Numbered from the whole stretch's first letter, positions 1 to 61,726 are shown. The stretch: DNA of 63,686 nucleotides, filler included, from Bonamia ostreae (GCA_040357525.1; 54 parts of 54 records of this genome joined end to end with filler, not necessarily neighbours in it), one strand, 5' to 3'. The notes: a model not told the origin generated them from the sequence alone. Numbers and translations: made by a program.

Positions 1-913
1 TATGATTTCGTCAGCTTGGTCCAAAATTTGCGGTTTTTCCTAAAATTTTACAAAATTTAGAATTTGAGATTACCAATTTTTCGTCTTTAAAATCCGCTTT
101 TTGGAATTTTTCGGTTAACAACTCGATCAAATTATCAATATTTTCGTCTTCTTCTAAAATTTAAAATTGTAAAACTTTTGGGAACTTTTTTGAAAATTTT
201 TCTGTCGATTGTGACAATTTTTGGATTAGTTCTATGTTCAGAAGATGACATAAATTTAGCCAAAATGTCGATATAGTCGTTATCGAGATCTTTATTGTCC
301 AAAATTTCTTTTTTCCGTTTGATGTTTTTTCTTCTTTTGAACAAGTTTTCCAATTCGGGCGAATCTTTGTTTTTAGAGGAACTGGTTTTATTCGCTTTCA
401 AATTTTGATCAAATTGTATTGTTGATCTTCTGTTGCTCAAAGTTAATAGTTTTGAGAATTTTCTTAGTCCGTCGTCCATTGTTAAACCTTTTGATTCTTC
501 GTTTTTCGGAGAATTTTTTGATTTTTGGTTTTTCGCAGAACTTTTTGATTTTTCTTCTTTTTTTGGGTTTTTGAGCGATTTTGCGATTTTGCGATTTTTT
601 TGTGATTTTTTGGAATAATTTGATGATTTTCTGCTAAACAATGAATTTTTTGATGATTTTCTTTTCCTTTTATTCTATTTTTACAAAAGTTAAAAAAAAT
701 TGCGATTAGTTATAAATCGGTCTATTAAAATTGTTTTCAAACTTCAATCCAATTCGTTAATTTCTTGCGTTCCTCTTTTTTCTTGATGACGCGACGTAAA
801 ATGGATTTGTCGATGTCGAAAAGATTTTCGATTGTTATCTGTTTCTCCTCAAATTTCTTCAAATATCGGTGGTCCAAATCACATTCGTCTAGCACATTTT
901 CAAGAGAAGACAT
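1..913 (-). CDS. SAM-domain-like protein with Lys/Ser-rich region, 3' partial
   Basis: ATG at 913 gives MSSLENVLDECDLDHRYLKKFEEKQITIENLFDIDKSILRRVI, a sterile-alpha-motif pattern. GT-AG introns at 675-742 and 154-175 (22 nt) join it in frame to ORF 135..641 and beyond. Confidence 0.55.
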
Positions 914-1089
914 AATTTTTTTATAATTATTACATATATTGGAAACAATTAGACTACGAATTTTATATAACAATATTATATATATTACAGATTTAGTTTT
1001 TTAGAGAGCTTATAAACATTATAATGGCGTTTTGGTGTTTCTGAGTAGATTAAATATTTATAAGATCAGTAAATATATTTAGAAATGGA

Positions 1090-1189
1090 NNNNNNNNNNN
1101 NNNNNNNNNNNNNNNNNNNNNNNNNNNNNNNNNTTAATTAATTAANNNNNNNNNNNNNNNNNNNNNNNNNNNNNNNNNNNNNNNNNNNN
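1090..1189. other. Artificial contig linker N44-TTAATTAATTAA-N44 (first of 53 copies)
   Basis: An identical 100-bp block recurs about every 1.18 kb, and its 12-mer places stop codons in all six frames. Contig lengths between linkers decrease monotonically from 1089 to 1074. Confidence 0.98.
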
Positions 1190-1480
1190 ACATGGGTTTC
1201 AACAGTCTTGTTTAAAATTTTATGGTTGCTATGATGATCTAAGTTACTAATGCAACTAACACTGGGTCATTGCTGTCTGACGTGCTTCATACGAATTGTC
1301 CTGTTGTTCTTTGCATTCTGAATTTGACTACAGATTACTCCGATTACGTGATTAAGATAAATGATTCATGGGTCTGTGACCAATTAAGAGGGGATGTTCA
1401 CTTTTCTATGCACCTAATCCCACTTCTCTTGTGGGTCCAGTGGTTCGTCTTTGATGTGTGTTATGTTGTAAGTTCCTTTT
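1190..1480 (+). mobile_element. Degenerate 3' end of an oyster-type Penelope-like retroelement (RT C-terminus plus terminal repeat)
   Basis: Decayed reading HGFQQSCLKFYGCYDDL...MLSDVLHTNC, followed by the GTGACC...GGGGATG...GCACCTAATCCCAC repeat also seen in five other contigs. A second copy lies at about 1605-1750. Confidence 0.65.
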
Positions 1481-3466: not shown

Positions 3467-3622
3467 NNNNNNNNNNNNNNNNNNNNNNNNNNNNNNNNNN
3501 NNNNNNNNNNTTAATTAATTAANNNNNNNNNNNNNNNNNNNNNNNNNNNNNNNNNNNNNNNNNNNNAATAAATACAACAAACCCAAAATTAAATTTAAAT
3601 ACATTCTGTACTTTCAAAACTA

Positions 3623-4468
3623 ATGAACAAACTACTTGTTTTAATAATTCTGCTATTCCGTTATGTCTATCCATATCCTTTAGTGATATTAGTTTCTGAG
3701 CAGAAAGTAACGTATTGTGCTCATTTGGGTGATAAAGAAAAATCAAAGACAACAATTTCAAAATTTGTTGGAGAAGCAAATGTTTTTTCGCAGAGACATT
3801 TCGACTACATTGTTATCCTTGGTGAATTCCAATTTTACAATGAAAATGTTAAATAATTAAATATTAAACTTTAAATTTAAAACAAGTAAAAATTTTTTAT
3901 TTCTAATCATCAACTTAAAGTCTGCTGAATCAAATAACAACGCAAAGTTTTCTTTATCAAGATTAGTTGTGATAAACCAGGAAATCTCGAAAATTTACTT
4001 AATGTAAAAAATCGAAAAGTAAAAGACACCGAAAATATAAAAGATCGATTAGTTGCAATCTTCGCAACTTCTTCAAACAAGGGCCATTATCACTTTTTCC
4101 CAAATGTTGATACAGAAGAATATGTGATGGCTTACCAAATAACAAAATATCTCGAAAAAACACTTTTAGCATCTGTCGGAAAAGTAGCTGGAGCGCCTGT
4201 GATTTCTAAAACAACTTTAAACTACTTAATGGCGGATGTTGATTCTGACCAACCTATATTGGTATCAAAGGAAACAAATTTTGCTATTAACAATTTTTTC
4301 AGGTTGTTAAGAGATCGAAAACCCTCTCTTCCCTTCGTTCGGGTCCTAAGAGGAACGGATTACGTTTTGACCGAGTCTAAATATTTCATTCCGGCCATAG
4401 CATCCACACTTGGTGTTATCATCATTGCTGCTTTTACAGTTGTTCTGCAATTGTTTCTCAATAAATGA
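3623..4468 (+). CDS. Complete type I membrane protein (signal peptide plus C-terminal TM helix), about 250 aa, function unknown
   Basis: Exons 3623-3847, 3921-3946 and 3967-4468 (introns 73 and 20 nt) give 251 codons including the stop. N-terminus MNKLLVLIILLF, C-terminus IPAIASTLGVIIIAAFTVVLQLFLNK. Confidence 0.65.
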
Positions 4469-6288: not shown

Positions 6289-6660
6289 CAATACGGTCGA
6301 ATACTCGTGAGAATTGGTGGCGGCGGATCCGTCACACGATACGGGTAGACACTCCCGTGATTGGGCCGAATACCCGTGAGAATTGGTGGCGGCGGATCCG
6401 TCACACGATACGAGTAGACACTCCGGTGATTGGACCGAATACCCGTGAGAATTGGTGGCTGTGGATCCGGCCTACGATACGGCTAGACACTCTGATGATT
6501 GGGCCGAATTGGCGTGATAATTGGTGGTGGCGGTGGAACCGTCCCACGATACGGCTAGACACTCTAAAGATGATTGGGACGACTTGGCGTGAGAATTGGT
6601 GGTAGCGGTGGATCCGTCCCACGATACAGCAAGATACTCGGGCGATTGGGCCGAATACCT
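6289..6660. repeat. GC-rich tandem minisatellite, about 5.3 units of 69-75 bp
   Basis: Units start near 6289, 6357, 6426, 6495 and 6570. Core GATTGGGCCGAATACCCGTGAGAATTGGTGGCGGCGGATCCGTCACACGATAC. No unique spacers. Confidence 0.9.
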
Positions 6661-9504: not shown

Positions 9505-10528
9505 ACCATTGCACGAAATAACCCCTCGATTATCAACGGATTGTCTGATCCATACGCGTATAAATTCCTGGAGGACTTTGACAGATCAATGTTCTTATTT
9601 AAGTCCCAGACGGCGTTCCATACATTCCAGCTGACTACATTGCAGCTCGCGCCGGAGTCAATCAACATTGGCACTGTCGGAGCCTACATTCACATCTATC
9701 ATGGCACTGACATTTTTCCCATTTACAGAGAATGCATAATCATCATCTGATGAAGAACTGTCATGAATCAAACGTACATATTTTGCACCTTTATTCTTGT
9801 CTTATTTTACATTTTCAGACTTACACATTTTGGCAAAGTGTCCGACTTTTCTGCTTTTGTTGCAGGTTTTATCCTTTGTTATTAAACATTCCTTTGCGAT
9901 GTGTCCTTTACGGTCACAGCGAAAACAGATTCCAGTATCCTTTGACACTGCTCTGTGTTTTGGTTTGATAATTTTCTTGTTANNNNNNNNNNAATCAAAT
10001 TTGTCCGCTAGTCCGACAACAATTTCAGATGCACGTGTGATATCTAACAGGTTTTTAAGCGACAATTCTTTCTCTTTTAACAAACGTTTTCGTAGTTTTG
10101 ATGATCTGCACTTCTCCAATACTTGATCTCTAATGTTGTCATCTGTATTTTCGAATTCACAAGTTAATGCTAACTTGCTCAGTCTTGTAACAAACCCGTC
10201 AATCTTCTCCGACTCACCTTGAGCCGTTGTTCTGAAAATATGCCTCTCAAATGCCACATTGCGTTTTGGCTGAAAATATTCATCAAGTTTTTTACTTTCC
10301 CCATTGAGGTCATCCCCAGTGTCATCCATTGTGCTGAAAATTTCTTGGACATCTGCCCCTACCGAATGAAGGAAAAGAGCCCGTTTTTGTTGTTTTTCCG
10401 TTACTCCGGACGCTGTCAGGTAGAAATCAAATGTTTTTTTTCCACTTGTCCCACCTCTGGGAAACACTCGTTTGATCGCCATGTATATCGAATGGTCCGA
10501 TCGGTGGCAATTGTAGAGCTTTAGCCAT
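9505..10528 (-). mobile_element. Ty3/Gypsy LTR retrotransposon gag-protease relic (Mag-like), frameshifted
   Basis: MAKALQLPP...RWDKWKK, then KRALFLHSVG...FERHIF...IRDQVLEKCRSSKLRKRLL, two zinc knuckles (CFRCDRKGHIAKEC and CNKSRKVGHFAKMC) and the protease motif LIDSGASCNV. Frameshifts near 10435 and 9680. Confidence 0.9.
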
Positions 10529-10691
10529 GTTTGTAGTTCTCTTCTTTTTCTTCTTTTTAGGCGTTCATACACCAAACACAATCATTGTTTGNNNNNNNNN
10601 NNNNNNNNNNNNNNNNNNNNNNNNNNNNNNNNNNNTTAATTAATTAANNNNNNNNNNNNNNNNNNNNNNNNNNNNNNNNNNNNNNNNNNNN

Positions 10692-14318: not shown

Positions 14319-15302
14319 TTCCAGCGACGAGTACATTGTTTTTATTTAAAGAAAGAGTATTTATGATATTTTGCGGACGAGTTAAATTGCGTTGAAATTG
14401 CCCCTGAGGCAATTTCCAATCTTTAATGGCATCTGCGGCACCGCTTATAAAAGCATTTTCAGTTTGGTGTATCAAAACGTCTCTAATGCTTTTTTTGTGG
14501 TGCGTCAATGTCTAATTATTAAATTCTCAAAACTGTTATCGATCTCCCATTTCTCAAATCCCAAAAACGAATCTGATCTGTTAAATTTATTAAACAGTGT
14601 GATCGTGGCTGCCTGTTATTACTTGTGGTTCGTATTCTTGAGTTTGAACGCTTGCCACAGTTGATTTGTGGCCACTTAAAACATGAATCTGCGCCTATTA
14701 TTTTTACATAACTAAAAGCTTCAAAAATATTAATTTTTCAATGATTTTAATTATTTGTTTATTGTTGTAACGACATGTTTATTAAAAATTTTTTGTTTAA
14801 AAAATCCGCATATAAAAAATTTACAAAATATATCAAACAGAAAGCTTTAAATACCGAAAATTTTAAAATGTCAAAAACTTTTGTTCGGACATCCCAGACT
14901 CTCCCACAAGAATCTCTGCCAACAGACACCAAAACGTCGAGCGTCGGGTGAAGAGACAATCCGTAGACACCACTCAAATGGCCGTGGTACTTTCTAATAA
15001 CTTTGTTCTGTTCAAAATCCCAACAACGAACAGATTTGTCATCTCCGCACGAAAAAATGTACGGATGTCTGTCGCTCACACAAATTCCTCTGACTCCGGT
15101 CGTGTGGCCAGTCAAAGTCAATTTGAGTACTCCGCTTGCCAAATCCCAACTGTTTTTGATTTTATCAGTAACAAAAAATTACATTTTGATCGTGCGATCG
15201 TTGCTACCTGTAACAAACCATTCGTTTGCGTAATCAACTGCAACTGCTCGCACCCAGCCAAAATGTCCAGATATTACTCTTTTTAGTTTCCAAGGCGCGT
15301 GC
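14319..15302 (-). CDS. PLRG1: Pleiotropic regulator 1 / Prp46 WD40 splicing factor, partial
   Basis: [18 protein letters not shown]...[21 protein letters not shown]...[11 protein letters not shown]...GSHDHTIRFWDL. Introns 15150-15182 (33 nt), one of about 185 nt, 14573-14595 (23 nt) and 14512-14533 (22 nt) restore the frame. Confidence 0.95.
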
Positions 15303-16720
15303 CTTTTTCGATTAAAATGGTTTTTCGATTTTCGANNNNNNNNNNNNNNNNNNNNNNNNNNNNNNNNNNNNNNNNNNNNTTAATTAATTAANNNNNNNNN
15401 NNNNNNNNNNNNNNNNNNNNNNNNNNNNNNNNNNNACCGCGAGCCTCGACTACAATGATAAAATATGTAAAGTGAGTGCATAACACAAAAACGAAAATGA
15501 TTTTGAAATTTGAAGCAAATTATACTTTGTTGCTACACCCACGTCCCATGCAATTTCCGATCGACACTTGAAAATGTAAGGGCATCTGTAACACATAAAA
15601 TAGACAACTATAAAAGCGACATAATATATGGTATGTATTACATTAAAGTAAAATCATTCGAAATATCAAACGAAGATTATTCTCTGCATCCGTTTACAAA
15701 ATATACATGCATGTTCATGTAAAATACCAAGAACAATTGGATACCTCAAGATGGAGGGTATGTTCCTTATTGATAAACTTCTGGAAAGTTTCCGTGTTAA
15801 TGAAAGACGAACAGCTCCATTTCGGACAGGCTATAATCAATTTCGATTTTTCAATTGATCCAACTGCAATCTGCAGACATTCCAGACAAAAGGAATGTGC
15901 GCAGTCTTGAATTACTGCTGTTGCCTAAAAAGAACAGGTTCCCAACACTTGCACCAATAGTTATTATATGCCTTTCTAAAAATCATTTGCAAAACATCTG
16001 TGAATCACACCGCCTTAAAGGCTTAACACTCGCTGATGGTACATAACCGGTGAAAGTACTAGGAGTTATATTCACTACAGTTTTGATTCACTCTTTCGGG
16101 AAAGTACCGAAAATGGAACTGCAACCATTGAAGGTTTTGAAAAGTTATACAGAAAATATTTTCTGGAAAGAACTCCCTCCAAAAGCTATCCATAGTGTGA
16201 CCTCTCGTTCAATTTAATCATTGTTTCACTATTCTGAGTAACCATAGGTCTGCATGTTTCTTATATTTGATTGTGGTTTGCACCTACTAAACTATTTGAT
16301 CTATATCCATTGCTAGTGTGTTTCCCCAGCCAAAAACTGAATGGAATTAAAGATACTAGATACACCCCTTGGCGGTGACATTTTCCATTACCTCCCTTCC
16401 ATAGTTAAAGTTCATTTATTTGAACTAAATTATTTTGATATACTCATTCGATCTACATTGATACATTTCTATATAGGTTTTGTAGAAAGTAAACATAGTT
16501 TCTAGATGAAAGGTAAAAATNNNNNNNNNNNNNNNNNNNNNNNNNNNNNNNNNNNNNNNNNNNNTTAATTAATTAANNNNNNNNNNNNNNNNNNNNNNNN
16601 NNNNNNNNNNNNNNNNNNNNTTTAAAAATTGTAAAAATTTGTTTTTGTCAAAAATCTTAAAAAATTTTTCTTTAAAAATCGTAAAAATTTTATTTTCCCG
16701 AAAAATTTTAATCGATAAGA

Positions 16721-16814
16721 TCTGGAGATTAAATCTCAACTTGGCGACGCCAAAGAAAGCAACACGGTAAAGAATGAAGATATTGAAAATTTACTCAAAA
16801 AATTTGCAGATTAA
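16721..16814 (+). CDS. Last exon of a gene, weakly resembling an ESCRT-III (CHMP2-like) C-terminus
   Basis: After an AG acceptor it reads LEIKSQLGDAKESNTVKNEDIENLLKKFAD-stop. Convergent with CNOT9. Confidence 0.3.
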
Positions 16815-16896
16815 ATGGCAAAATTTTACCATCTTGACAAAAATTTCTAATTTTCAAATTTGCGTTTTACAATAAAACAAAAAAATTAAAAACGAT

Positions 16897-17668
16897 TCAG
16901 TCCCTCAAACTAAGATTGTGAATTAACTGGTTGAGCCATTTCTGAGCATCGCTGTCTCTGCTCAGCAAATGTTCGAACGCATTTGTTCTCAACGCGCTCG
17001 GCAAACATTTTCTTAGAGCGTTCCTCGCTCTTAAAATTCAGCAAAAAACTTTCTGTTTGCCGAAAGACATAAATAACAGTGAATAATGTGTTTTAACAGT
17101 CGAATCGAGTTTTTGTTAATCATTTTCTCCACTGTTTCTCTTTAAGGAATTTTAGTAAATTTTGTCAGCAAAAATTTTGCAAAACATCAACACGTCGCTG
17201 ACGGAGAAAAATCTATCCGACGTGGCACAAACGTATTCGAGACCTTGTCGATCGATGAGGATTTTCTGGATGATGTAGGCTGCGACGGTCTGTGAAATTT
17301 CTGTTGCTTCCCTTAAGATCTTCAGACAAAGCGGGACGATTTCTGTTTGGATGAGATATTTTACGACTTCGGGGTCGTTTGACTAATTTATATCTATTGA
17401 ACTTGCAACAGCGACCCGAAAACGCCGAGCCCAGTTAATCTTATTTTCTCCAAATTAACGCTTTTGTGATGGCGAATGTTTATAAACGGGAAGATGTACA
17501 GAGGAACATTGGCTAAATTAGGAGTAGAAAACATTCTATGAAAACGGTTCTGGTTTCCGGGTGCATTGCTATGCATTGCATTATTGCCAGAGAGTTACAA
17601 CAACGAGTCGAAATTTCCATTTGGAGTTTCTCGGGATAATGGAGATAAGGATAAACCGACAGCAACTC
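16897..17668 (-). CDS. CNOT9: CCR4-NOT subunit 9 (Rcd1/Caf40), 5' partial
   Basis: RCCNSLAIMQCIAMHPETR...RLTGLGVFGSL...TEIVPLCLKI...RLLKHIIHCYLCLS...ARNALRKCLP. Introns 17513-17532, 17383-17402 and 17030-17049 (each 20 nt) and 17140-17185. Confidence 0.93.
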
Positions 17669-17805: not shown

Positions 17806-18479
17806 TTTTATCAATTTTATCGATTTTTTGTTTGTTTTTTGTCTTTTTATCAATTTTATCTTTTTTCTTGCGATTTTCTTTAATTGTGAATTTTGAAGGA
17901 TCCCAAATTAATTTTCTGCGACTTTCGTACTCTTCATCACTTTGACCTTCTTGAGCAGATGACGAATTTTCTTCATTTTTAAATTTTCGTGTTGGCCGTC
18001 GATACTTATTTTAACAAAAATTCAAAATTTTCTTCAAAAATAATATAAAAAGACGCCATTTTATATAAAACACGCAAAACAACCAAATTTCAAAAATACT
18101 TTTTAAGCGCTCATTTTCCAAACCTTTTTTACATGATCACACCGCAATATTCTCCCATTTATTTTTGTTCCATTAAAATTATCAACAGCTAAGACAGTAC
18201 TCCTTTGATCTTCAAAAGCAACAAAAGCGTATCCAAGAGAATTCCCCTTTTCTTTGTCTTTGACGAGATTGCAATCGACGATTTCCCCGAATTGGCTAAA
18301 AATGCAAATAATGTCGCCCTCTGAAAATTGATAGTCAATTCCACTTACAAAGACATAAGAACTGTTTTTGTAAGCCGCGTGCCATGAAGCTGATTCCGGT
18401 GTGTTAAGCCGTAATTCCTTTTTGTTGATTTTTTCTATTTCTTTTATAATGTTCTTTAAATTAATTTGTGATTTACCAT
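17806..18479 (-). CDS. RBMX2: RBMX2/Snu17/Ist3 RRM protein (RES complex), 3' partial
   Basis: SWHAAYKNSSYVFV...EGDIICIFSQFGEIVD...FEDQRSTVLAVDNFNG...RILRCDHV. A 23-nt intron follows the ATG directly (18454-18476); second intron 18005-18123. Confidence 0.95.
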
Positions 18480-19905: not shown

Positions 19906-20411
19906 GATAAAACAAAAAAATTGAAAAGAAAAGGAAACATAAAAAAGAATCATTAAAAAATAAACAGAACAGATTTTGATAAAATTTAGAGATCAAATAT
20001 TAGATTTGAAAGATATGGCAAGATAAAGAAGCAAAGAAATCTTCTTATAGAAGCATCTTACCACGAGCGAAAACGNNNNNNNNNNNNNNNNNNNNNNNNN
20101 NNNNNNNNNNNNNNNNNNNTTAATTAATTAANNNNNNNNNNNNNNNNNNNNNNNNNNNNNNNNNNNNNNNNNNNNGATTTTTGTGTTTGCAATAATGTTT
20201 ATTTATTGATAACGCAATCGGTTCTTACTTTATTTAGGACGGATAAACAACTTTTTGTCTTTGCACAAAATTGCAATTTAAACAAAAAATCACAACGATA
20301 TCCAAAGAATTGGTTCGTTAAACATGACAAGACGACAATTTTTGCATTTTTGGCACTTACAAAAACGCAATTTTGCAAAATTTCAAATATACAATTAAAG
20401 CTAAACAAAAC

Positions 20412-21185
20412 CCCGCCGATAATGGACACAGTTCTAACTCCCAACGGTTTCGCAAAACGCTCTGTTTCTCGCTCGATCTGTTCGGCGAGTTCCCGCGACG
20501 GCGCCAAAATGACCGCGTACGGCCCGTCCGCCGAGTTTTGCGGTGTCAGCGGCGGCAACTTCAAAATGTATTCCAACATCGGAATCACAAACGCGCATGT
20601 CTTCCCCGAACCCGTTTCCGCGATCCCCACTATGTCGCGGCGAGCGAGCCCGATCGGGATCGCCATCCGTTGGACCGGCGTCGGATCGCGATACCGCGCG
20701 CGCCGCAGTTCTTCTTTGATGCGCTTGTCCAGAGCGCTTTCTTCCCAATAGCGAATCGGCGTGAACTTGCCGATTCCGCGAGTGCTGATTCCAAAGTCTT
20801 CTCTGAAAATCCGCCAGTCGCGGTCTGTCATGTCTTCGAGCTTCTTGTGTTTCCAAAGATGGTGCGCCGACTTGCGGGCGAGTCTTTTTTCTTTTAAGCG
20901 GCGGATGCGCTCCTCTTTGCGCTCGATTATGCGAGCCATCCTCCGCGGCTCGCGGGCTTTGTGTTTGCGGAGCATCTCGAGGAACGCGCTGTTGCGCGTT
21001 TTCTGGGCCTCGCGATCGACGCCGGCGACGAAGCCGCGGCCGAAAGCAAGCGAGACGTCTGCTTTTTTGGCGTAGAGCTCGTTCGGGTCGACGGAGGTGT
21101 CCTCGGTGGGTTCCCAGTCAAAGTTGAATCTTTGTCTGTGGTCGAGAGGAATCACCCGTTTCTCTCTCTTCTTTCTGCCCAAGTA
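20412..21185 (-). CDS. DDX23: U5 snRNP DEAD-box helicase Prp28/DDX23, internal exon
   Basis: FNFDWEPTEDTS, MTDRDWRIFREDFGI, PTPVQRMAIPIGL, DIVGIAETGSGKT and DGPYAVILAPSRELAEQI. The exon is bounded by AG (21186) and GT (20411). Confidence 0.96.
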
Positions 21186-21359
21186 CTTATTTGTCGCAAA
21201 ATTATTTTTGGACTAAAGATTTTTGGGGTTAATGTTTTTATTTCTTTGTTTAAAGAAATNNNNNNNNNNNNNNNNNNNNNNNNNNNNNNNNNNNNNNNNN
21301 NNNTTAATTAATTAANNNNNNNNNNNNNNNNNNNNNNNNNNNNNNNNNNNNNNNNNNNN

Positions 21360-22746: not shown

Positions 22747-23560
22747 CACGAAGCGATGGCTATTTTTTTCAGCCAAACTGTCGCCTTTAGATCGCCTTAT
22801 TTTAATTTTCCCGTTTTGCTGCAGTCTTTGAATATTCAGATAACTTCTCCCGACATCCCTTCTCCTCATTCCCGAATTCGCGCAAAGCTCTTTAATCGTT
22901 CTCGGAACGCCGTCTAATTTACACGCGATGTAGGAGCACGCAACAATCAGGTTGTCTTTGTTTCTTCCTTTAACTTCACCAAGATCGAAGAGCTGCTTAA
23001 AAATCGATTGTGTTATCACCTTTAGAACAACATTATATTGTCATTCGATAAACTTTTACAGATCCGGAAAGCTTTAGTTTATAGTTGATTTCGTCGATCG
23101 TTTTGTAATGGTTGAAAAGTTGTTGCGATTTGCCCGACTAGTTGATTAATTTTACAAGCAAAATTTGAATCGCTATAAGCGAACTATATTTAGTTTGAAA
23201 GTCCGTTCCGTTTAATGGATTAAAAACAGATGCTCTGATTTGGTTTCTGGTCAAAATGTGGTTGTTGTTGGCTCCTTTGCCAATTTGGGTCGAACCGACT
23301 TCCTCTTCTTCCAAAAGAGGGTGAGAAGGCCCGCCGACTCTGTTCATATCGACTCCTTTGTCATTGGCTAATAAATCGCAAAAATTACATTCCGAAAAAG
23401 TTCTCCATTCGGTGTCGTCTGATATAATCCTGTGCCCCAATACAAGTCCACAGGAAGTGCACACGTTTTGGCCTTCCCTCGTATCTTTAACAACGACCGA
23501 CTGTACGCATTCAGGGCAAGTCGGTTGAATGGGCTCAACGTATTTGCTAAACTTTGGCAT
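22747..23560 (-). CDS. GTF2B: Transcription initiation factor IIB, 3' partial
   Basis: Zinc ribbon CPEC...CTSCGLVL, B-reader EWRTFS...NRVGGP and cyclin fold KGRNKDNLIVACSYIACKLDGVPRTIKEL. Three introns, including 23368-23388 (21 nt). Confidence 0.95.
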
Positions 23561-33301: not shown

Positions 33302-33805
33302 TTATTTATTGAGATATTTGGACAAAACGGATCGCAATTTCGATTTCTTTTTATTTTTCAAAATTTTTTTCGATTTCTTCAAAATCGGATCTTCTCTCAA
33401 CTTTCTTTCTGAATCCAAAATCAAATTTCCTTTCTCGCTAAATGGACATTCTCTGTCCGCTTGAACAAATTTTTATTAGCAAAATTTACTTTTAAAATTC
33501 GAATTAGAAACCGGCTCGATGGCCGAAATTCTTGCAACGCCAACATTGCATGATTTTAACTTCTTTTCCGAGTGGCTGGAAAAGCCCTTTGCTCGGCGCT
33601 TTCTCCAAAAATCGTTTCACTTCTCTGTTTTCTCTAAACTTTAAAATTTCTACTTTGTGTCGGGAATGTGTTCGGCCGATTTGATCCTTTCTTCTTTCGA
33701 GTCACTTTTTCGAAGTCCGTAATTTTTCCTTTTTACTCCGATTTCGGACTTTTCTTCCAATAAATCTTTATATCCTTTGCTCCTCTTCAATTCCGAATAT
33801 TCCAT
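33302..33805 (-). CDS. RP9: RP9/PAP-1 splicing-associated zinc-knuckle protein
   Basis: IPD...FLEKAPSKGLFQPLGKEVKIMQCWRCKNFGHRAADRECPF...GN...EDP matches RP9. Introns 33634-33653 (20 nt) and one of about 50 nt. The 3' end is uncertain. Confidence 0.9.
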
Positions 33806-37910: not shown

Positions 37911-38989
37911 TCGCAGCGAAAAGTTGGAAATGCCGAAAATGTAAACTTTACCTTCCAAATCCAGCAAAACAGCGTGATTGTTGCCCGAAGAAATGTCCAC
38001 TATCTTCGGACTTTTGGGAATTTTTAGTTTATATGGAATATTCTGCTCTTTCACGATTTTGTTCTTTTCCAAATGATGTCCCACTCTGCCGCTACTGCTT
38101 TTGAAGGAACCCCACGAAAAAACGGTCCCGTCTTCGAGGAGAGCGACCATATGTTCGTCTCCCACAGAAATTTTAGTGGTTTTGGGAGGTTTGTTTTTAA
38201 AGCTTTTTTCGAAGCTTACTTTTTTTGGAAAATATTCCAAATCGGTGTTTTTTGATGTGTCCCTTCCCAATACTCCGCCGTCGTTCTAATAAAATTTTAA
38301 AAATTCTAAAAATTCTAAAAATGGCTTTTTGCGAAACAAAATTTTTACACAATTCTTAAATTTTTATACAATTCTTAAATGATATGAAATTAGAGTCTGT
38401 TCATTAAAATATTCAAAAGTTGGCAATATGAACAAAATTGTTAATAAAGCGAGTTCCAAACAGCTTTAAATTAACATAAATTGCTGCAATAAATGTCCGA
38501 TTACGTTGACAGATAAAAATTGTTGCAATATAAAAATGGACGTTTTTTAAGACTTTTATACAATTGGCATATAATATTTAAAGCTCGATTGATAATGTTG
38601 CGAGCAATCTTAAATAGAAACGGGTCCCCAAGTCCAGACGTCTCCGTCGGAATCGATGGCGGCCATGCAAAAAGATCCGCACGCGACAGACACAAAATGG
38701 ATTCTCAGCGAATCTTTTTGCAAAAATGGTCTTTTGACGTCGGCTTCGCCATTTGGACCTAATCCGAGCGTTCCAAATGAGTTGTTTCCAAAAACAAATA
38801 AACCAGTCTTCCCATTTTCAATTTTTTCTAGACTTTTGGCAAAATTGGATTTAAATTCATTTTTCTCGACCGTTTTTTCCTTCTTCGATTCAATATTTTC
38901 GTCGAAAAAGCCAAAAGTAAATTTTGACGGATTTGTCTTTTCGCCGAAAATATTAGTTTTCGCAGAATTTTTGTTGTTTTCTGTTGTTT
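37911..38989 (-). CDS. RCC1: RCC1 (RanGEF) beta-propeller, internal fragment
   Basis: LFVFGNNSFGTLGLG...VACGSFC...GDVWTWGP|NDGGVLGR...ISVGDEHMVALLEDGTVFSWGSFK...ISSGNNH. Intron 38286-38621. Confidence 0.85.
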
Positions 38990-39481: not shown

Positions 39482-40011
39482 ATGGCGATTCTACACACTG
39501 ATGTTTTAAATAATAATTTAGATCGAAGTTTTGTGTAATAAGGAATTGAAACAAACAAACATCCTTGAAATCGATAAAGATCTACTCGACATAAAAAACA
39601 AAATCTTGAAGGCTCACCAGGAGAACAAAGAATTTAAATCCGATCTCAAAATGGATTTGATCGGGAGTTTTCTTTTGGGCAGCATAATTTTCGACAACAA
39701 ATTAGGTGTAGACATTGCTGTATACACCGAAAAAGTTTATTTTGCCAATATAGGACTTCTTCGAAGAACTTGATATATATTCTCGTGTATATTTTGAAAA
39801 AAGAAAACGTTTTGCTGCGTTTATTCAAAACGCTCTAAAGAATATATTTGACCAAATCGACTTAATTGAAGATTCTGCTTTTTATCGCCCTATTTTGACT
39901 ATCCAACATCTAGTTAATGGCAGAATGGTCACTTATAATTTCTTTATGTGCACTTATTATTCAAGTGTAGACTTCGCTAATATAACGCCATTAAATTCTA
40001 AGCTAATAAAA
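39482..40011 (+). CDS. NOL6: NOL6/Utp22 (Nrap) N-terminal region, 3' partial
   Basis: LIGSFLLGS...VDIAV...FFEELDIYSRVYFEKRKRFAAFI...RPIL. Two 19-nt introns (39503-39521 and 39735-39753) restore the frame. Confidence 0.75.
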
Positions 40012-40020
40012 GTTTATTTA

Positions 40021-40167
40021 TTTAATTTGGAATTTGGGGCTCACGTCTCGACCTGACCATTCATCGTCTAGCGCAGATATTCAAAGTTCGAAATTTTCAG
40101 TAGCAACAATAAATTTTATAAATATGCGCGATGGCTCAGTGATTCTGAATAACTGTACGCATTCGTG
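40021..40167. mobile_element. Second locus of the SINE-like family: tail on the minus strand plus head on the plus strand, inside a NOL6 intron
   Basis: TTTGGAATTTGGGGCTCACG.CTCGACCTGAC...CATCGTCTAGCGCAGATATTCAA matches 19691-19770. GCGCGATGGCTCAGTG...GCATTCGTG (40126-40167) resembles the tRNA-like head. Confidence 0.6.
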
Positions 40168-40334: not shown

Positions 40335-40845
40335 CTACTCCTTTCGCAGCCCCGTTTGGGCCCCTAAAAACAACGGGCACTTTTGTTGCGCCTCCTGTCA
40401 TGTAGCAAGCTTTCGCAGCCGAATTAACGATCTGATCGATTGCCTGTAAACTGAAATTGAACGACATAAATTCGCAGATCGGCCGTAATCCGTTCATCGC
40501 TGCTCCCTTTGTTATGAAGACAATATTTTAAACGCAATCGATCCAATCGTTTTGGCAAAAATAAAAAACGACAGAAATTCCTGTGAACCCCATTTCCGTA
40601 ATTGGAGTGTCGAGCACTCTTTTGTCGGAGAAGCGGTCCAAAAGACCTTGAGTGATCTTATACGCGCCATTGTAGTCGGCGACTTCTTCGCCAATAACGA
40701 ACACATTTTCGTCTCGTTCCATTTCTTCGCGAATAGAGCTGTTTAAAGCTGCACGTACTGTCATTTCTTTAGAGCTGAAATATCGTGAAAATCCGAATTT
40801 CGTTTTGTTGTTTTTCAGCATCTTTTTCGTTAAATTTTTGAGCAT
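40335..40845 (-). CDS. PDHB: Pyruvate dehydrogenase E1 beta subunit, mitochondrial, 3' partial
   Basis: Basic presequence, then MTVRAALN...[17 protein letters not shown]...[25 protein letters not shown]...FRGPNGAA. Intron 40507-40569. Confidence 0.96.
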
Positions 40846-42623: not shown

Positions 42624-43191
42624 CTTAATGACTTTGCACGCGAAGCGATAACCCAATCAGTCGCCGGCACTGTCGTCGGCGCGTACGTGCTGGGGATCGA
42701 GATCAAACCTCAATTTTTTCGTTTCACCAAAAAAGGAAAAATTTATCTTTTGGACTTCGACTCTCTTTTCGGCTGTCCCATCGTCGACGCGCCTCTCTCT
42801 GCTGGGAGTAAACCCAAAATACACTTAGAACACAGTTTGATAATTTTCCATTAAAAACTAATATACGAAAAAAAGTTAAAATGTTTTTCCCGGGAGCTTT
42901 ATTGAGTTATTTTGGTCGTGTTGGAACATCGGAAATGAATGCGGCGTGTATCGTGGCATTTTTGAATCTGAGGAAATATAGCGGCACTGTTATTCGATTT
43001 GGTTAAATTTGGCAATTTTAGTGAAAATGATGTTCGGGAATTGTTACGACAGCAGAGATTTGGAAAAGTTCGTTTCGATGATGTTAATGGCGGATGCGGA
43101 ATTCAAAGAAGTGGAAAAGAACATAAAGAAGACAATCAAAACAAGTTCAAAGTACTATCAAAGGCTACTTCTCAGTTTGCTGGAACAATAA
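42624..43191 (+). CDS. PI3K/PI4K-family kinase-domain C-terminus with degenerate catalytic motifs, 5' partial
   Basis: TQSVAGTVVGAYVLGIEIKPQFFRFTKKGKIYLLDFD...CIVAFLNLRKY...MMF. Introns 42835-42875 and 43002-43021 (20 nt), stop at 43191. Confidence 0.75.
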
Positions 43192-43701: not shown

Positions 43702-43827
43702 NNNNNNNNNNNNNNNNNNNNNNNNNNNNNNNNNNNNNNNNNNNNTTAATTAATTAANNNNNNNNNNNNNNNNNNNNNNNNNNNNNNNNNNNNNNNNNNN
43801 NAAAAGAATTTGATAAAAACGGAATAT

Positions 43828-44295
43828 ATGGAAAAGAAACAAGTCGAGAGACTGATAAAAAAAACTCTTAAGGGAATAGGGCTATATTCAAAAGAAGCTC
43901 TACTTCTTCTGATGGGTACAATGGCACAAGAAAGTGCTTTTGGTCGTTACATTCGACAATTGAACGGTGGTCCTGCACTTGGTGTATTCCAATGTGAGCC
44001 AGGAACATTTAATTATGATCTTGAGAAGTTGAAAGCAAAACCTCATTTGTACACTAAAGTTCTGAAAGTTTCCGGATGCAGAGAAATGACTTTTGAGCAA
44101 CTTGAAACCAATTTGGCTTTAGCTATTTGTTTTGCTCGACTTCATTACTATTTCTATCCAAAGGCTATCCCTCGAACACTAGAAGAGCAATACAACTACT
44201 ATAAAGTTTATTACAACTCTGTACAGGGAGCAGCAACAAAAGATCAGTATTTGACAAATTACAAAAAGTATATTGGTGAATTTAAAATCGATTAA
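43828..44295 (+). CDS. Phage lysozyme-like protein (putative endolysin)
   Basis: Intronless. LLMGTMAQES, GPALGVFQCEP, ARLHY and YKVYYNS form a lysozyme-fold pattern (catalytic Glu in AQES, GxxQ) seen in marine phage proteins. Confidence 0.75.
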   Translation: MEKKQVERLIKKTLKGIGLYSKEALLLLMGTMAQESAFGRYIRQLNGGPALGVFQCEPGTFNYDLEKLKAKPHLYTKVLKVSGCREMTFEQLETNLALAICFARLHYYFYPKAIPRTLEEQYNYYKVYYNSVQGAATKDQYLTNYKKYIGEFKID

Positions 44296-44297
44296 TC

Positions 44298-44879: not shown

Positions 44880-45130
44880 NNNNNNNNNNNNNNNNNNNNN
44901 NNNNNNNNNNNNNNNNNNNNNNNTTAATTAATTAANNNNNNNNNNNNNNNNNNNNNNNNNNNNNNNNNNNNNNNNNNNNCTGTACAGATATTGGCAAAAT
45001 CATCACTTAGTGCCAATACCTTAGCTGCATTTTATCCTGTAGAGAATGATGATACACCTAATTATCTTAAAAACTATTAATTATTTATTTGATAAATAAT
45101 TAAACTTTAAACAAAATCTTACTTCACGAT

Positions 45131-45159
45131 AAAGTCTTCAAAATATTTTGAGGGCTTTT
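45131..45159. terminator. Putative rho-independent terminator hairpin
   Basis: AAAGTCTTCAAAA-TA-TTTTGAGGGCTTT inverted repeat about 50 nt after a plus-strand stop at 45080, between convergent genes. Confidence 0.5.
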
Positions 45160-45365
45160 CATTATAGAAGTAGTATAAAAAAGCTATAACTCCCTAAAAA
45201 AATAGTTATAAATCATTAAAGATATAATTACATGGGAAGAAAATAAAAAATTAGATTCCAATATTAATCTCTTAAACTATAATAATCTGAGATTATAAAA
45301 AAGTTATATAATCATGAAGAGTAGAGGGAAAAGTGATTGTTTTGAAGATTCAAGGGCATAATAAA

Positions 45366-45704
45366 TCAACAGAATATAATTTTTTGTACTAACAGATGAC
45401 TCTTTTGTAAATCAATATTAAAATTATAGTTTGAATTGTTGGTATTTTTAATTGTTTTGTATGAAACTACACTATCATCTTCTAAATACAAGTCAAATTT
45501 AATGTATGCATTTTTTAAGATGTGTTCTTTATGTTTTAGTTTAACAATAATCTCATTTTTTCCTAACTCAAGCTTATGTTTAGCTTTTATATTAATTCTA
45601 TAATCGCCAGATCTTATTTTTTTAATGCTCATTTCATTTTCTTGAGCATATACACTCCCTAACAAGAGAGTAGTTATTAAAATTATATTTCGTAAAGTTT
45701 TCAT
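45366..45704 (-). CDS. Bacterial secreted FixH/YtkA-like Ig-fold protein with C-terminus deleted
   Basis: RBS AAGGA upstream of the ATG and signal peptide MKTLRNIILITTLLLGSVYA. The intact C-terminus (KGQYGYLLTFRKKDGVTHSVRGNFRI) is present in a duplicate at about 45924-46057. The style suggests Campylobacterota, which is an inference. Confidence 0.55.
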   Translation of the reverse strand: MKTLRNIILITTLLLGSVYAQENEMSIKKIRSGDYRINIKAKHKLELGKNEIIVKLKHKEHILKNAYIKFDLYLEDDSVVSYKTIKNTNNSNYNFNIDLQKSHLLVQKIIFC

Positions 45705-46960
45705 GTCTTTCCTTTTTTTATAAATTATATATATTTAATATTTGGAGAAGAGGAATTTATTCCAATTCTCCATGAAGCAATCTTTTACTTGAATGATCAT
45801 GAACTTTTTTATGATGATCATTTTTATAAAATAAAAAATATGTAGAACTAATAACTCCTCCTATAATAATCAATTATAAAGACGTAAATAATTATTAAAA
45901 TAGGAACAGATGACTCTTTTATTTAAATTCTAAAATTACCTCTTACAGAATGAGTTACTCCATCTTTCTTCCTAAAGGTCAACAAATAGCCGTACTGACC
46001 CTTCTTTTGTAAATCAATATTAAAATTATAGTTTGAATTGTTGGTATTTTTAATTGTNNNNNNNNNNNNNNNNNNNNNNNNNNNNNNNNNNNNNNNNNNN
46101 NTTAATTAATTAANNNNNNNNNNNNNNNNNNNNNNNNNNNNNNNNNNNNNNNNNNNNTTTGGAATCTCAAAAGAAACACACCATGTCGAATGTGCTTGAA
46201 ACTACACAATAGAAAGAAATAGATTCGGTGATTATGTATTCAAGGTTTCGGTCATTTCATGGTGGCTAATTATATATGTTCGGTATTCAGTTTTGGAATT
46301 TCTCTGACGGCTCCCAATGAGGCTACTCTTTTTCGGAAACCATAGTTTTGAATTCCATATCATGCACATCTAAAAAAAAAATTCATCTTTAAACAGAAAC
46401 GTTATACAATATTGTCATCCGGAACATGCATACACAGATTCTTCCATCATTCATTTTTTCTTTGTTTACTAAATAATGTTATATGGTAGGTTATAGTCGT
46501 TTTAGATTCCCTTCCTGCATTGTTTATGCATTCTGGCAGAGTATCAAGCTCTCCCATTTCTGCCCAATATCTAACATAATCTTCGACAGAAAGATATTTA
46601 GAGATTAAGTTTTGGCGCCACTTCAAATAGCGGGGTTCTTGAATTAATCCAGATATAATCTGGTCTAGATCCAGTTACAAGTAACAGGGACTACTATGAA
46701 GCATACAGTCATGGCTATCATTGTTACTGCTTGTAAAAATAAGGGGGGAATAGAACACGCATTTTAAATATGTAGAAAACTTGTCTAGCAGGAAGTTGAT
46801 TTCAAAATGATTACTCATCCAGTCATACAGAGGTGCACCAGTTACCATTGCAGTGAAAATGGTTGGGTACAATTTAAGCTGTGAAATATGATCCGTGTCT
46901 TGCTACCTCAAATGTGAGGGATATTCTCCTGTTAAAGTTCCATTTGGATTCTATTCCCTC

Positions 46961-54855: not shown

Positions 54856-54992
54856 TAAGCATGCTTACTGTACATTCTCATCTTGAATTTGGGTAAATCA
54901 ACAATTCAATTAGTCTTTCTGAATTTTACTGCAGAATATTTCACAAGGTGACATGTAAGTAGAGGAATCTTTCATATTATTTATGATTTCAG

Positions 54993-57405: not shown

Positions 57406-60400
57406 CATCAAATGTTTTGGCTCAGATCAATGAATAGTACAACACAATTACATGTGTATTCATATTAACATGGGTAACTTTAAGCAAATTATACAGCGAC
57501 ATAGTCTTTAAAGACTATCTTGTACACATATCTACTGTATGGATAGTTTCTAGATATTTATTGTTCATGCTCTTCCCCCTCTCGAGCCCCCAAATAAATA
57601 TAATTCCAAATATTGTTTCCGGAACATGTAATTCCCTCGTCTAGCGACCTTTGTAAACCGTTCTGAATAGTTTGGTGAGAGCAAACGCGTACATAAAACA
57701 TAAACTGAGTATTTAACGCTGCATGAAGTGATCAGCGGCGATATCACACACATATTTAGGAGACATAATTGCTTTTATCTATATTTTTAGCATCGTATAT
57801 ATTAGTATATATATATNNNNNNNNNNNNNNNNNNNNNNNNNNNNNNNNNNNNNNNNNNNNTTAATTAATTAANNNNNNNNNNNNNNNNNNNNNNNNNNNN
57901 NNNNNNNNNNNNNNNNTTACTTCATACATATTTATGTATCAATAGTTTTTTCTAAACTTTTGACATTAAAATTTGCTATTTTAACAAGTTTTTTTTAAAA
58001 TGTTTGATTGTGTTTTACGAAAATGTGTGATTTTCTGTTTTTGTATGTGTGACATCTTAGAAAAGATGGAAACATATGTATTTGCTTTGGTTATTGATTA
58101 AAACAAGCTATATTGAGTAGAAATTAATTCAATTGTACCACTTACAGCCACTGATATTAATAAGTCAAATGAGGGTGGAACTACTTTAGATATTTTGAAT
58201 TCATTTAGTATATGCCTTGATGCTGCAGGTTAATTGGTTTTATATATTGTGTAGGTATCTGTCTTAATCTAGAACATCTTATGCAGGTCAGATACTGTAG
58301 ACTCATTGAAATTTTTAGGGGCAATATTAGTGGATTTTAAGATTTTGATAGTTGCATAAGAATGTGATTTCGTGATAAGATTTCTGAATATTAAAAATAT
58401 GCTGAACTGTGTATTTGGTACTGGTTTTGAATTCATGGGATAAAGTAACCCACAACACTCATACAAGGCATCAAAAGTCTCCATGGTATTTAAAGCACAA
58501 CGCTACGGCAAATAGAACTCTTTTTTTTTCTTTTATTCTTGCATGAGTTCAACTTGCAACGCCACCGGTTGCAAAAGTCATGCTTTCACAAATCAGACGC
58601 AAGAGGTAGAGCCACCAGAGACACTTAGACATATTTTTGTATGAAATACTTTAAACCTTAAAAATCTGCAACATCAGCGTTACTTCATGAAACAAAAATA
58701 CAAAGTAACAAAAATACCGTCGTCATTTAAAACTAAATATATCTTAGAAATACCCATCTCTGATTTCGAATTAGATACGTTTTAAGAGTCACTTACTATG
58801 CATTCATCGTTTGATTCAATGCCGTAAAGTAATTCAAATCAAGAGTTGCACTTATACACTGTCTTTTCTCGATTTCTAAAATTACCTTCTTTAAAGAGTA
58901 AACCTTTGGAGAAGTATGGTACTATAATATACGATCCAAATAGTTTCCGAATACACAAGATAAACGATTTTCACGACAAAACCTGATACANNNNNNNNNN
59001 NNNNNNNNNNNNNNNNNNNNNNNNNNNNNNNNNNTTAATTAATTAANNNNNNNNNNNNNNNNNNNNNNNNNNNNNNNNNNNNNNNNNNNNTGTACCTCTA
59101 AGGAAAGATGAGATAATATATATTTTAAAAAAACACACACATTGAGAAGAAAACTTTTGAAAAAAACAAATATTGACCCTGACAACATGCTCGAGATTTG
59201 CAAGTGTCAGGGAAATTCAAGTATCTTTATAGCATGTGTATTTCTATTAATAAAAGTTATCATACGCTATCAATAAAAGGAGCAACTTTTAAGTACTTTA
59301 AACGGTTTGTGACTGTAGTTTGGTGCCATGTTTGGATTTTGACAAAGGAAAAGTACATTTTGGGCTAACGGTATCTGAAACCAAATACATAATAAAGTAT
59401 CAATGTAGAACTACTACTACTACTGTGTAACATGAACATCAACGGAATACTACTGTTACTATAAAACAATGAAAAAAGTACTGAAACATCCAGTTTTTAC
59501 AAAGTAACATAAACTAATACATGCTTATTCAAGTCTGCAAAACAAACGCCACCAAACACAAAAATTCATTCTATCGATCTACTGTATGGTAGTAAAGACT
59601 CTGTAATTTACTATGCAAAATATTACTTTGACTTATTTTGATATTTTGAAGAAAGAAGTGGAAGTAATTACTTTAAACAATTAAGGCTTACAACATCGAA
59701 ATGTTTGATACCTTGACCTGTTGTATTGGGAATCTGATACTATTGTCAACTATTGTAAACACTTTGCCACAAGTACTTTGAATTGTAAACACTTTTTACA
59801 AGTGCTTCGAATTGCTATTGTAAAGTCTTTGATGACTCAAATAAGAATAATATGTACTATTATTAACTTAAATTATCATGTTTTCGTATTTCATTATTAC
59901 TTCAATTTTTTTTCTCCTTTTTTATACTACAATCCTAATATTTTAAGTTTCTGTACATTCAATATAACACCCTTACCTGGGTTTCAAGTTGCTAGTTGAT
60001 GACTTGAATATGATAAATATCATCATTTATATATACCATTGTGACGTGGGTAAAACGTGGACATGCATGGTATTAGATAGCGATTACCGAGAAATTTGAA
60101 ATGTGCTGATTCTGCCAGGTCGAGCTCAGATATATAATGTACATTTGTACCATGATAACAGTTTNNNNNNNNNNNNNNNNNNNNNNNNNNNNNNNNNNNN
60201 NNNNNNNNTTAATTAATTAANNNNNNNNNNNNNNNNNNNNNNNNNNNNNNNNNNNNNNNNNNNNGAATGACAACTCTGCATGGATAAACGAAGGCTAAAA
60301 CAGGGTTATGCAACTTAGATCAAGCATTTAAAGTTTTATGTCTAAAGTTTTCTGAGGGGAAAATCCCATTTTATTTATCTCTACTTGAGAATATTTGGTT

Positions 60401-61447
60401 AAAACTATATATGCCGTATATTTTATGTATCACCGTAAGAATAAATTATAAACTATATGAATTATATTATCCATTGAACTCAACCGGATTAAAAAGTATC
60501 CCAGCGAATTAAGTAGAGTAGAATATTTGGTTAGATAATGATTGAAAAATCTGAATATCTGACTATTTCATTTACAGTTGTTAATAAATACACTCCTATA
60601 TCAAAATGCCTCTGGTAAGTCGGATATTGGCGCTAGAGGTTCATTAACCTACTTGTAGGCCTNNNNNNNNNNCACAACGAAGAGAAGCGAGGTCCTCTCT
60701 GGAATTTGCAAAATAGATACCATGAAAAAAACCTTGGTTATTATGGGGAGGTAAGAGCTGTCCATTCTGAGAAGTTGTGTGCCAAAATCTTAAACATATG
60801 TGAAAGAATTATCACTACTCGGCTAAGGAAACTGCTAAGAACAGTGTGCTTTTCTCGCGCTAGTAACCTACGTCATAAATGAACAAGCAAAGGATTATCA
60901 TTGACAATACATAATGACATTAATGAATGTAGATATAAACAATCAATCATAGTCACGTGGCAAGAAATCCATGCAATTTTTATGTTGCTATTTTTCCTGG
61001 TGTATAGCAGAAATTTTGAGAATTTTTCTATCCTATGTTGTGGCAGTTGAACAAAAATCTTTACTACATAAGGATGCTTGTAAATTAAATTAACACTTGT
61101 ATATATTACATTATATTTATGTTAGAGTGTTTCACTGAAATTATCTTGTATGTATACAATCCCTATTCTATAGTTTGAACAAACTTGAATGTTTTTGGAT
61201 TGAAACTTGTGTTGCAAGGTTTGGTTGATGTTAAGGTCATAGGATACTCAGAGTTTTGGACACATCAAATGACGCAACATTGTGTTGATTTTCTGTTATT
61301 TAATTAAACAACAACGTGAATTGCTATTGATGCACGTANNNNNNNNNNNNNNNNNNNNNNNNNNNNNNNNNNNNNNNNNNNNTTAATTAATTAANNNNNN
61401 NNNNNNNNNNNNNNNNNNNNNNNNNNNNNNNNNNNNNNTTAAAATAT

Positions 61448-61726
61448 TTATTGAATTTTATGTTTTTCTGCAGAATCTTTATCACTTCCATTTTGATCTC
61501 TTCCGTTCATTTCTTTGCTATTTTCATTCTCGTGAAAAATGCAACAAACATTAGATTTCTTCTTATTCATAAATTCGTTGTTTATCACATTTTTGTCCCA
61601 TTTTACTTTACTTCAAAATGACAAAATTTGAAACTTTTTCTTTTTAAGTGTTAATTCGATCGTCTCGAATTCTTTTTCTACTTTACAGCTTTCAACAATA
61701 CCATTTCCGTTTTTGTTATTGCTCAT
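61448..61726 (-). CDS. PPP1R11: Protein phosphatase 1 inhibitor-3 (PPP1R11/Ypi1), complete, 84 aa
   Basis: [26 protein letters not shown] contains the RVxW motif and the conserved NE/CCI block. One 24-nt intron, 61611-61634, contains an in-frame stop. Confidence 0.92.

Follow-up and report, generated by a model that had tools for sequence, protein, structure and literature searches.

Are introns of about 20 nucleotides (nt) an ordinary component of the nuclear genome of Bonamia ostreae, a member of the Haplosporida (Ascetosporea, Rhizaria)? The question is raised by a window of 63,686 nt from its assembly (GCA_040357525.1; by window we mean the whole stretch of DNA that was analysed, spacers included), for which a preliminary description had listed 14 short segments of 19-24 nt as spliceosomal GT-AG introns. 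We answer it with a high degree of confidence: these are very probably ordinary U2-type GT-AG spliceosomal introns of the B. ostreae nuclear genome, in which most have shrunk to about 20 nt. All 14 segments have the expected ends, and seven of them are strongly supported by a contig of the public run X1 that lacks them, by public gene models that remove them, or by the collinearity of the interrupted gene PLRG1 with its human counterpart.

The window and its fourteen short segments

The window strings together small contigs from a fragmented B. ostreae assembly. It is made up of 54 separate contigs of about 1.08 kb, sorted by length (from 1089 down to 1074 nt) and joined by identical N44-TTAATTAATTAA-N44 spacers (e.g., 1090-1189). 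These give 4724 N in a strictly regular pattern, and the DNA is AT-rich, with about 30% guanine plus cytosine (G+C). A CNOT9 exon matches "Cell differentiation protein RCD1 [Bonamia ostreae]" (P0001), and the public proteins P0001, P0002, and P0003 are 100% identical to window exons read with the standard code. For the published assembly, the passages of PMC11069148 available to us give an N50 of 1417 base pairs (bp), 33.3% G+C, a mean coding sequence (CDS) of 658 bp, and a mean of 2 introns per messenger RNA (mRNA) in Table 1; they describe gene models made by funannotate with default settings and training on RNA sequencing (RNA-seq) data.

The 14 segments are spread over 10 different contigs. 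The span 154-61634, originally presented as one genome stretch, is not a locus because the window consists of unrelated contigs joined end to end. Genes are broken off at contig ends, and the downstream exons of the DDX23 and EF-G fragments are nowhere in the window. An alternative genetic code was considered and dropped, as the spacers and introns explain the short open frames and the three public proteins fit the standard code.

As to their ends and lengths, the segments are as first described. All 14 run GT..AG on the strand of the interrupted frame and measure 19 (two), 20 (seven), 22 (two), 23 (two), and 24 nt (one). That their removal restores the frame also proved correct: each has a phase that joins two stop-free frames, and reading through meets a stop within 1-20 codons. 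The weakest flanks belong to 18454, whose upstream exon consists of the ATG only, to 39503, with 17 upstream codons, and to 3947, which a 26-nt micro-exon precedes. For eight of the 14, the host protein could be recognised, namely CNOT9 (three segments), PLRG1 (two), RBMX2, a polyprenyl synthase, and Ypi1.

Frame restoration by a short GT..AG segment is barely above chance, however, and at this base composition it is no evidence by itself. Segments of 18-24 nt with GT..AG ends join two frames of at least 40 codons at 40 places in the window, where composition predicts 26.6 and the mirrored decoy CT..AC reaches 33 under the same criterion. Without the 7 GC-rich or phage-like contigs among the 54, the count is 30 for GT..AG versus 15-29 for five decoy pairs. 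When frame joining is combined with a splice-site matrix, 7 real loci stand against 2-3 loci of the mirrored decoy in the 19-24 nt bin; beyond these lengths there is no excess over the decoy, and the approach is too noisy for a census. A tandem repeat at 6298-6659 (period 69, 5.1 copies, 82% matches, in a contig of 41% G+C) gives long overlapping open frames on both strands and thus inflated the frame-joining decoy counts.

The splice-site matrix was trained on 12 verified introns and scored against 2657 GT..AG segments of 17-26 nt. The eight listed segments outside the training set obtained rank fractions of 0.002-0.43, five of them below 0.08. A codon-usage gene finder based on dynamic programming, too weak with its 2008 training codons, recovered one of the 14 (154-175). 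Because the frame criterion lies so near chance, the claim must stand on independent evidence. Such support is strong for seven segments (17030, 17383, 17513, 3947, 29121, 14512, and 14573) and partial for two (18454 and 61611).

Removal of the segments, gene by gene

The CNOT9/RCD1 gene, on the minus strand, is interrupted by four introns:

17030-17049, minus strand: 20-nt intron in CNOT9/RCD1, phase 2 (X1 contig, P0001, human CNOT9 alignment)
17140-17185, minus strand: 46-nt intron in CNOT9, absent from the initial list (X1 contig, P0001)
17383-17402, minus strand: 20-nt intron in CNOT9, phase 0 (X1 contig, P0001, human CNOT9 alignment)
17513-17532, minus strand: 20-nt intron in CNOT9, phase 1 (X1 contig, P0001, human CNOT9 alignment)

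A 1306-nt contig of run X1 (depth 2103) covers 16718-17661 without the three 20-nt segments. The same contig skips 17140-17185 (joint 17139>17186), a 46-nt segment that reads CT..AC on the plus strand and hence GT..AG for the minus-strand gene. The assembly itself represents the unspliced DNA form. In P0001, these four segments are also removed, and the protein is identical to the five window exons; the spliced CNOT9 product aligns with residues 75-271 of human CNOT9 with a single one-residue gap, away from all four junctions.

The spliced X1 contig departs from the genome at 16718 and continues with sequence that does not resemble it, with a loose end of median 255 letters and 468 of its 1306 letters unplaced. 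A separate X1 contig of low depth (16.5) is collinear with the genome at 16621-16729. The departure at 16718 may mark an additional intron, located in the 3′ untranslated region and extending past the end of the genomic contig, or else the X1 contig may be chimeric.

Two other public models remove introns from window contigs:

3848-3920, plus strand: 73-nt intron in gene MHBO_003927 (P0002 versus DNA; GT..AG ends)
3921-3946, plus strand: 26-nt micro-exon between two introns of MHBO_003927 (P0002 versus DNA)
3947-3966, plus strand: 20-nt intron in the orphan membrane-protein gene MHBO_003927, phase 2 (P0002)
29121-29140, minus strand: 20-nt intron in the polyprenyl-diphosphate synthase gene MHBO_003937, phase 2 (P0003 and homologue alignment)

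P0002 (MHBO_003927) is 100% identical to the window only with 3947-3966 removed, and it also needs the removal of 3848-3920. In P0003 (MHBO_003937), residues 1-66 correspond to 29337-29140 and residues 54-285 to 29158-28463, i.e., 29121-29140 is removed. An alignment of the N-terminal exon of this polyprenyl synthase with nine homologues (MAFFT) has no indel at the junction, and the read-through frame lacks a start codon. Overall, the public models remove seven introns, of which five are among the 14, and these are all five of the claims that can be compared. The warning that default gene finders would miss many of these introns is thus not borne out, since all five were already removed in the public funannotate models.

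The PLRG1/Prp46 gene carries two of the listed segments and two longer introns:

14512-14533, minus strand: 22-nt intron in PLRG1/Prp46, phase 0 (exons match 5xjc_T 354-366, the putative micro-exon, and 367-431)
14534-14572, minus strand: putative 39-nt micro-exon between two introns of PLRG1 (human PLRG1 spacing)
14573-14595, minus strand: 23-nt intron in PLRG1, phase 0 (the preceding exon is 5xjc_T 321-353; the WD40 profile ends at 34/39 at the exon end)
14695-14878, minus strand: 184-nt intron in PLRG1, phase 0, absent from the initial list (exons are 5xjc_T 231-320 and 321-353)
15150-15182, minus strand: 33-nt intron in PLRG1, phase 2, a multiple of three with an in-frame stop (exons are 5xjc_T 189-229 and 231-320)

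The coding pieces match residues 189-229, 231-320, 321-353, and 367-431 of human PLRG1 (5xjc_T) directly. The gaps between them are filled exactly, by a split codon for residue 230 and by the 13 codons of 14534-14572, which would encode residues 354-366. Five successive pieces show gap-free collinearity with human PLRG1 across four introns.

Profile continuity identifies two more introns, both longer than those listed:

38286-38621, minus strand: 336-nt intron in an RCC1-like gene (WD40_RLD continuity; GT..AG ends)
40507-40569, minus strand: 63-nt intron in the pyruvate dehydrogenase E1-beta gene (PDHB), a multiple of three with an in-frame stop (Transket_pyr continuity)

In the pyruvate dehydrogenase gene, the upstream exon covers positions 2-64 of the Transket_pyr profile and the downstream exon positions 66-115. 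The WD40_RLD profile is covered from 2 to 56 upstream and from 58 to 170 downstream of the 336-nt intron. Orthologue collinearity adds six introns to the seven of the public models, and removal leads to an orthologue-collinear product in CNOT9, PLRG1 (four introns), polyprenyl synthase, PDHB, and RCC1. The further introns and candidates that were checked have GT..AG ends on the sense strand in all eight cases.

Support is partial for two listed segments, in RBMX2 and in a Ypi1-like gene:

18454-18476, minus strand: probable 23-nt intron directly after the ATG in RBMX2/Ist3 (human RBMX2 alignment)
18005-18123, minus strand: 119-nt candidate intron in RBMX2 (DNA and open-frame map; GT..AG ends)
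61611-61634, minus strand: 24-nt intron in a Ypi1/PPP1R11-like gene, phase 2, partial support (PPI_Ypi1 profile)

The RBMX2 exon that follows 18454-18476 begins four residues in from the N-terminus of the human protein, its residue 3 aligning with residue 7 of human RBMX2. The read-through frame has no ATG upstream of the conserved part, and an ATG followed immediately by the 23-nt intron appears to be the sole visible start. In the Ypi1-like gene, the exon downstream of 61611-61634 enters the PPI_Ypi1 profile (57 positions) at position 16, so that some of the domain must be encoded before it; no profile match of its own was obtained for the upstream exon.

A segment of another kind lies inside the open frame of TFIIB:

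23368-23388, minus strand: 21-nt stop-free in-frame candidate intron inside the TFIIB frame (yeast alignment gap)

In the alignment with yeast TFIIB, a gap of 7 residues falls on this GT..AG segment. If spliced, it would be a micro-intron invisible to any frame-based reading. Elsewhere, a 49-nt intron proposed for an RdRP contig (3140-3188) was rejected, as no RdRP match was found in its upstream exon and the profile continues into the sequence taken for the intron.

Five of the listed segments, and one further candidate, lie in genes that offer no usable homologue:

154-175, minus strand: 22-nt candidate intron, phase 1, in an orphan gene rich in lysine (166- and 46-codon frames; no Pfam match)
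33634-33653, minus strand: 20-nt candidate intron, phase 2 (frames of 62 and 42 codons; rank fraction 0.057)
39503-39521, plus strand: 19-nt candidate intron in an orphan gene ("NOL6"), phase 0 (frames of 17 and 83 codons; rank fraction 0.006)
39735-39753, plus strand: 19-nt candidate intron in the same orphan gene ("NOL6"), phase 0 (frames of 71 and 100 codons; rank fraction 0.007)
42808-42828, plus strand: 21-nt candidate intron that precedes 43002 within one contig (the two joined frames have 58 codons each)
43002-43021, plus strand: 20-nt candidate intron, phase 1 (frames of 63 and 55 codons; rank fraction 0.43)

Segment 154-175 has the fifth-best splice-site score of the 2657 (rank fraction 0.002). 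The host gene of 33634-33653 shows a weak zinc-knuckle match (zf-CCHC, E 0.1). The label NOL6, under which the gene with the two 19-nt segments had been introduced, could not be upheld: neither exon has a Pfam match, exon 39522-39734 has no PDB match, and exon 39754-40053 has no hit in 1.84 billion representatives. In the ESM Atlas, this gene gives weak leads (scores below 0.9) to nucleotidyltransferase-fold families. For the host gene of 43002-43021, Pfam and PDB searches found no family. A reading of its contig (42624-43701) as PI-kinase-like was likewise rejected, being without Pfam or PDB support. Segment 43002-43021 is the least secure of the 14.

Intron anatomy, lengths, and rival explanations

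Motif counts over 20 introns reveal a common layout. The exon end is A-rich, and T follows at +3 in 17 of the 20 and at +4 in 14. Among the 14 short introns, 10 start with GTTT and 12 with GTT, and the GTTT start is common to the longer introns (33-336 nt) in the same genes. Positions -9 to -7 are never G in the 20 introns and are mostly A, with AA there in 8 of the 14 short ones, and a T-rich stretch precedes the AG. The introns are 78% A+T, versus 61% in the 30-nt exon flanks. A 5′ splice site usually takes the form GTAAGT or GTATGT, unlike the GTTT-rich site here.

An A/C-A-A patch, which sits 7-9 nt before the 3′ end and, in a 20-nt intron, some 13 nt from the 5′ end, is the putative branch region. 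We propose that each intron would be transcribed with its gene and cut from the pre-mRNA, whereupon the exons would give the orthologue-collinear protein. The layout of the short class is compact and rather constant, with an A-rich exon end, a U-rich 5′ site, the A/C-A-A patch, a short T run, and the AG. A lariat would presumably form at a branch point, and small nuclear RNAs (snRNAs) would presumably read the U-rich 5′ site. The contig sample itself includes genes for the spliceosome proteins PLRG1 and RBMX2.

The 13 strongly supported introns measure 20 (five), 22, 23, 33, 46, 63, 73, 184, and 336 nt. Thus, 20 nt is indeed the commonest length, as had been proposed. Seven of the 13 are no longer than 24 nt, and exactly 20 nt are five of the seven introns in the three public models. 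Local density is also high, in line with the initial description, with four introns in 205 codons of CNOT9 and four in about 260 codons of PLRG1. What has to be given up is the notion of a closed class of 19-24 nt, since six supported introns of 33, 46, 63, 73, 184, and 336 nt lie in the same contigs. As these longer introns share the GTTT start and the same genes, they belong to one population with a sharp 20-nt mode and a long tail and do not form a separate system. The initial list was biased toward short, frame-shifting introns: one of its 14 lengths is divisible by three, versus three of the six additional introns.

Several points weigh against the spliceosomal reading. Run X1 is public, stored as contigs, and RNA by guess only; it was placed solely on the CNOT9 contig (16621-17705), and this transcript-like comparison covers four introns, three of them among the 14. 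Public gene models, being predictions, do not amount to proof. The matrix is a weak judge, as verified introns left out of its training have rank fractions of 0.006-0.45. For five of the 14 (154, 33634, 39503, 39735, and 43002), the evidence consists of open frames and the motif, and 43002-43021 competes with a 90-codon read-through frame and scores no better than a random GT..AG segment. Finally, no snRNA genes were found in the window with Rfam (gathering score and E 0.1). A tRNA search of the window found nothing either.

It is these five segments, above all, that may include chance GT..AG pairs, the true structure being another junction, a longer intron, or no gene. We regard this as unlikely, though with a real share of probability left to it. 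Decoys link frames of at least 40 codons nearly as often (33 versus 40, and 15-29 versus 30), and the matrix-filtered 19-24 nt bin holds 7 versus 2-3 decoys with no excess in longer bins. No homologue anchors the five, and 43002 combines its 90-codon frame with a rank fraction of 0.43. On the other hand, every claim that could be tested held, seven of seven strongly and two more partly. Moreover, three of the five fall within the top 0.7% of GT..AG segments even though the matrix was blind to them. Passages of PMC11069148 imply about 3 introns per kb of CDS, at which rate dozens are expected in 58 kb.

Could the segments instead be removed from DNA (like the internal eliminated sequences of ciliates), or be indels between copies or strains, and thus never be cut from RNA? 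The guessed RNA label of run X1 leaves room for this, as does the low-depth X1 contig (16.5) that follows the genomic form at 16621-16729. Even so, we consider it very improbable. All segments have GT..AG in the sense orientation of their gene, and the form without the segments exceeds the collinear piece about 130-fold in depth. The 46-nt segment and the three 20-nt segments are missing together from one molecule that encodes a protein collinear with human CNOT9, and the gene models were trained on RNA-seq (passages of PMC11069148). The short-read assembly is very fragmented (pieces of about 1.08 kb, N50 1417 bp in the passages of PMC11069148), but errors in assembling or sequencing it, or programmed frameshifting, can practically be dismissed as the source of the frame breaks. 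Errors would not form 19-24 nt blocks with GT..AG ends, the segments are precisely missing from an independent contig, the orthologue alignments are gap-free, and the seven strongly supported cases already contradict this explanation.

Some contigs of the window stand apart. In contig 38 (43802-44879), a 163-residue frame at 43804-44292 on the plus strand matches the phage family phrog_3108 (E 1e-35, full length), and another long frame without introns comes after it. This contig, and perhaps also 44980-46057, looks like a bacterial or phage contaminant in the parasite assembly. Contig 18 (20176-21259), which may derive from a different organism present in the sample, has 49% G+C, versus 23-39% for most contigs, and a 337-codon intron-free frame with a DDX23-like domain and the beginning of a DEAD helicase. 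At 9994-10581 on the minus strand, a 196-codon open frame appears retroelement gag-like by eye and has no Pfam or PHROGs match.

Bonamia among known tiny-intron systems

Literature searches found no paper that gives an intron length for B. ostreae or any haplosporidian, and the word "intron" is absent from PMC9329632. B. ostreae is said to carry "canonical introns", with a mean of 2 per mRNA, in passages of PMC11069148 that state no length. In general terms, passages of a 2026 paper (PMC13746701) describe ascetosporean intron numbers and sizes as drastically reduced. The public B. ostreae models (MHBO_003927, MHBO_003937, and "RCD1") describe the same DNA with seven introns already removed. 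The tiny introns of B. ostreae are thus real and so far undescribed in the literature searched, yet implicit in public gene models.

This matters for annotation. Introns of 19-24 nt do not exceed the default minimum intron length of common RNA-seq aligners; in STAR, gaps shorter than 21 nt count as deletions. In a related genome project, genes were predicted with a bacterial gene finder and no introns were reported (according to passages of PMC9998036), and the same species was later found to have introns of 16-17 nt (passages of PMC10245619). With the B. ostreae assembly in pieces of about 1 kb, the handling of introns decides whether gene content is correct and which gene losses are inferred. 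Predicted proteins would silently gain residues from stop-free in-frame candidates such as 23368-23388.

As a tentative generalisation, haplosporidians might possess introns of two kinds, a dominant class of 20 nt, whose 5′ site is U-rich (GUUUU) and whose branch region sits only 7-9 nt from the 3′ end, and a longer tail that shares this 5′ site. Both would be processed by a spliceosome that retains PLRG1, RBMX2, and other proteins. If this is true, intron miniaturisation in Ascetosporea would have begun before, or independently of, the reduction of the mikrocytid spliceosome. Bonamia would then be a living intermediate in which to test the model that sets deletion bias against a functional minimum length. 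With Bonamia, near-minimal introns occur in a second order of Ascetosporea, here combined with a long length tail and a U-rich 5′ site, and this offers a comparison point for how and why introns shrink to their floor.

The mikrocytids, to which the short introns had been likened from the start, are an apt comparison, as B. ostreae is itself ascetosporean. For Mikrocytos mackini, passages of PMC10245619 report 224 predicted introns, 217 of 16 nt and seven of 17 nt. The same source gives 16-17 nt for mikrocytid introns (M. mackini and Paramikrocytos canceri), those of M. mackini being highly conserved in sequence. It further describes a mikrocytid spliceosome reduced to 17-19 proteins and, in the passages available to us, no intron in the metabolic enzyme genes of M. 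mackini. Bonamia shares with mikrocytids its place in Ascetosporea and numerous ultra-short introns near the lower length limit, found in housekeeping genes including those for splicing factors. It differs in its mode of 20 nt (19-24) instead of 16 or 17, in the non-uniform lengths of its introns (six of 33-336 nt), and, compared with M. mackini, in having introns in metabolic enzyme genes (polyprenyl synthase and pyruvate dehydrogenase E1-beta). The introns of Bonamia have the GTTT start and the A-rich patch, but the matrix built on these places verified introns at fractions anywhere between 0.006 and 0.45 relative to random GT..AG segments.

Chlorarachniophyte nucleomorphs have introns of 18-21 nt (Gilson et al. 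2006, as summarised in passages of PMC10245619). Here, the likeness lies in a nearly identical length, a high density, and AT-rich DNA. The nucleomorph is a relic algal nucleus in a rhizarian host, and its introns keep to a narrow range without a tail, whereas in Bonamia the introns belong to the organism's own nucleus and coexist with longer ones.

In the heterotrich ciliate Stentor, introns measure 15-16 nt (cited in passages of PMC10245619). As in Bonamia, tiny GT-AG introns are read by the spliceosome. Stentor has a standard-code genome. Unlike Bonamia, it is a free-living ciliate whose introns are shorter and uniform in length. In Bonamia, the typical length does lie under about 25 nt, but the confinement of nearly all introns to a range of 1-4 nt that characterises a uniform tiny-intron regime was not found, as lengths of 33-336 nt occur in six of the 13 strongly supported introns. 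The introns of Bonamia work like those of the known tiny-intron systems but fail their defining narrow length range.

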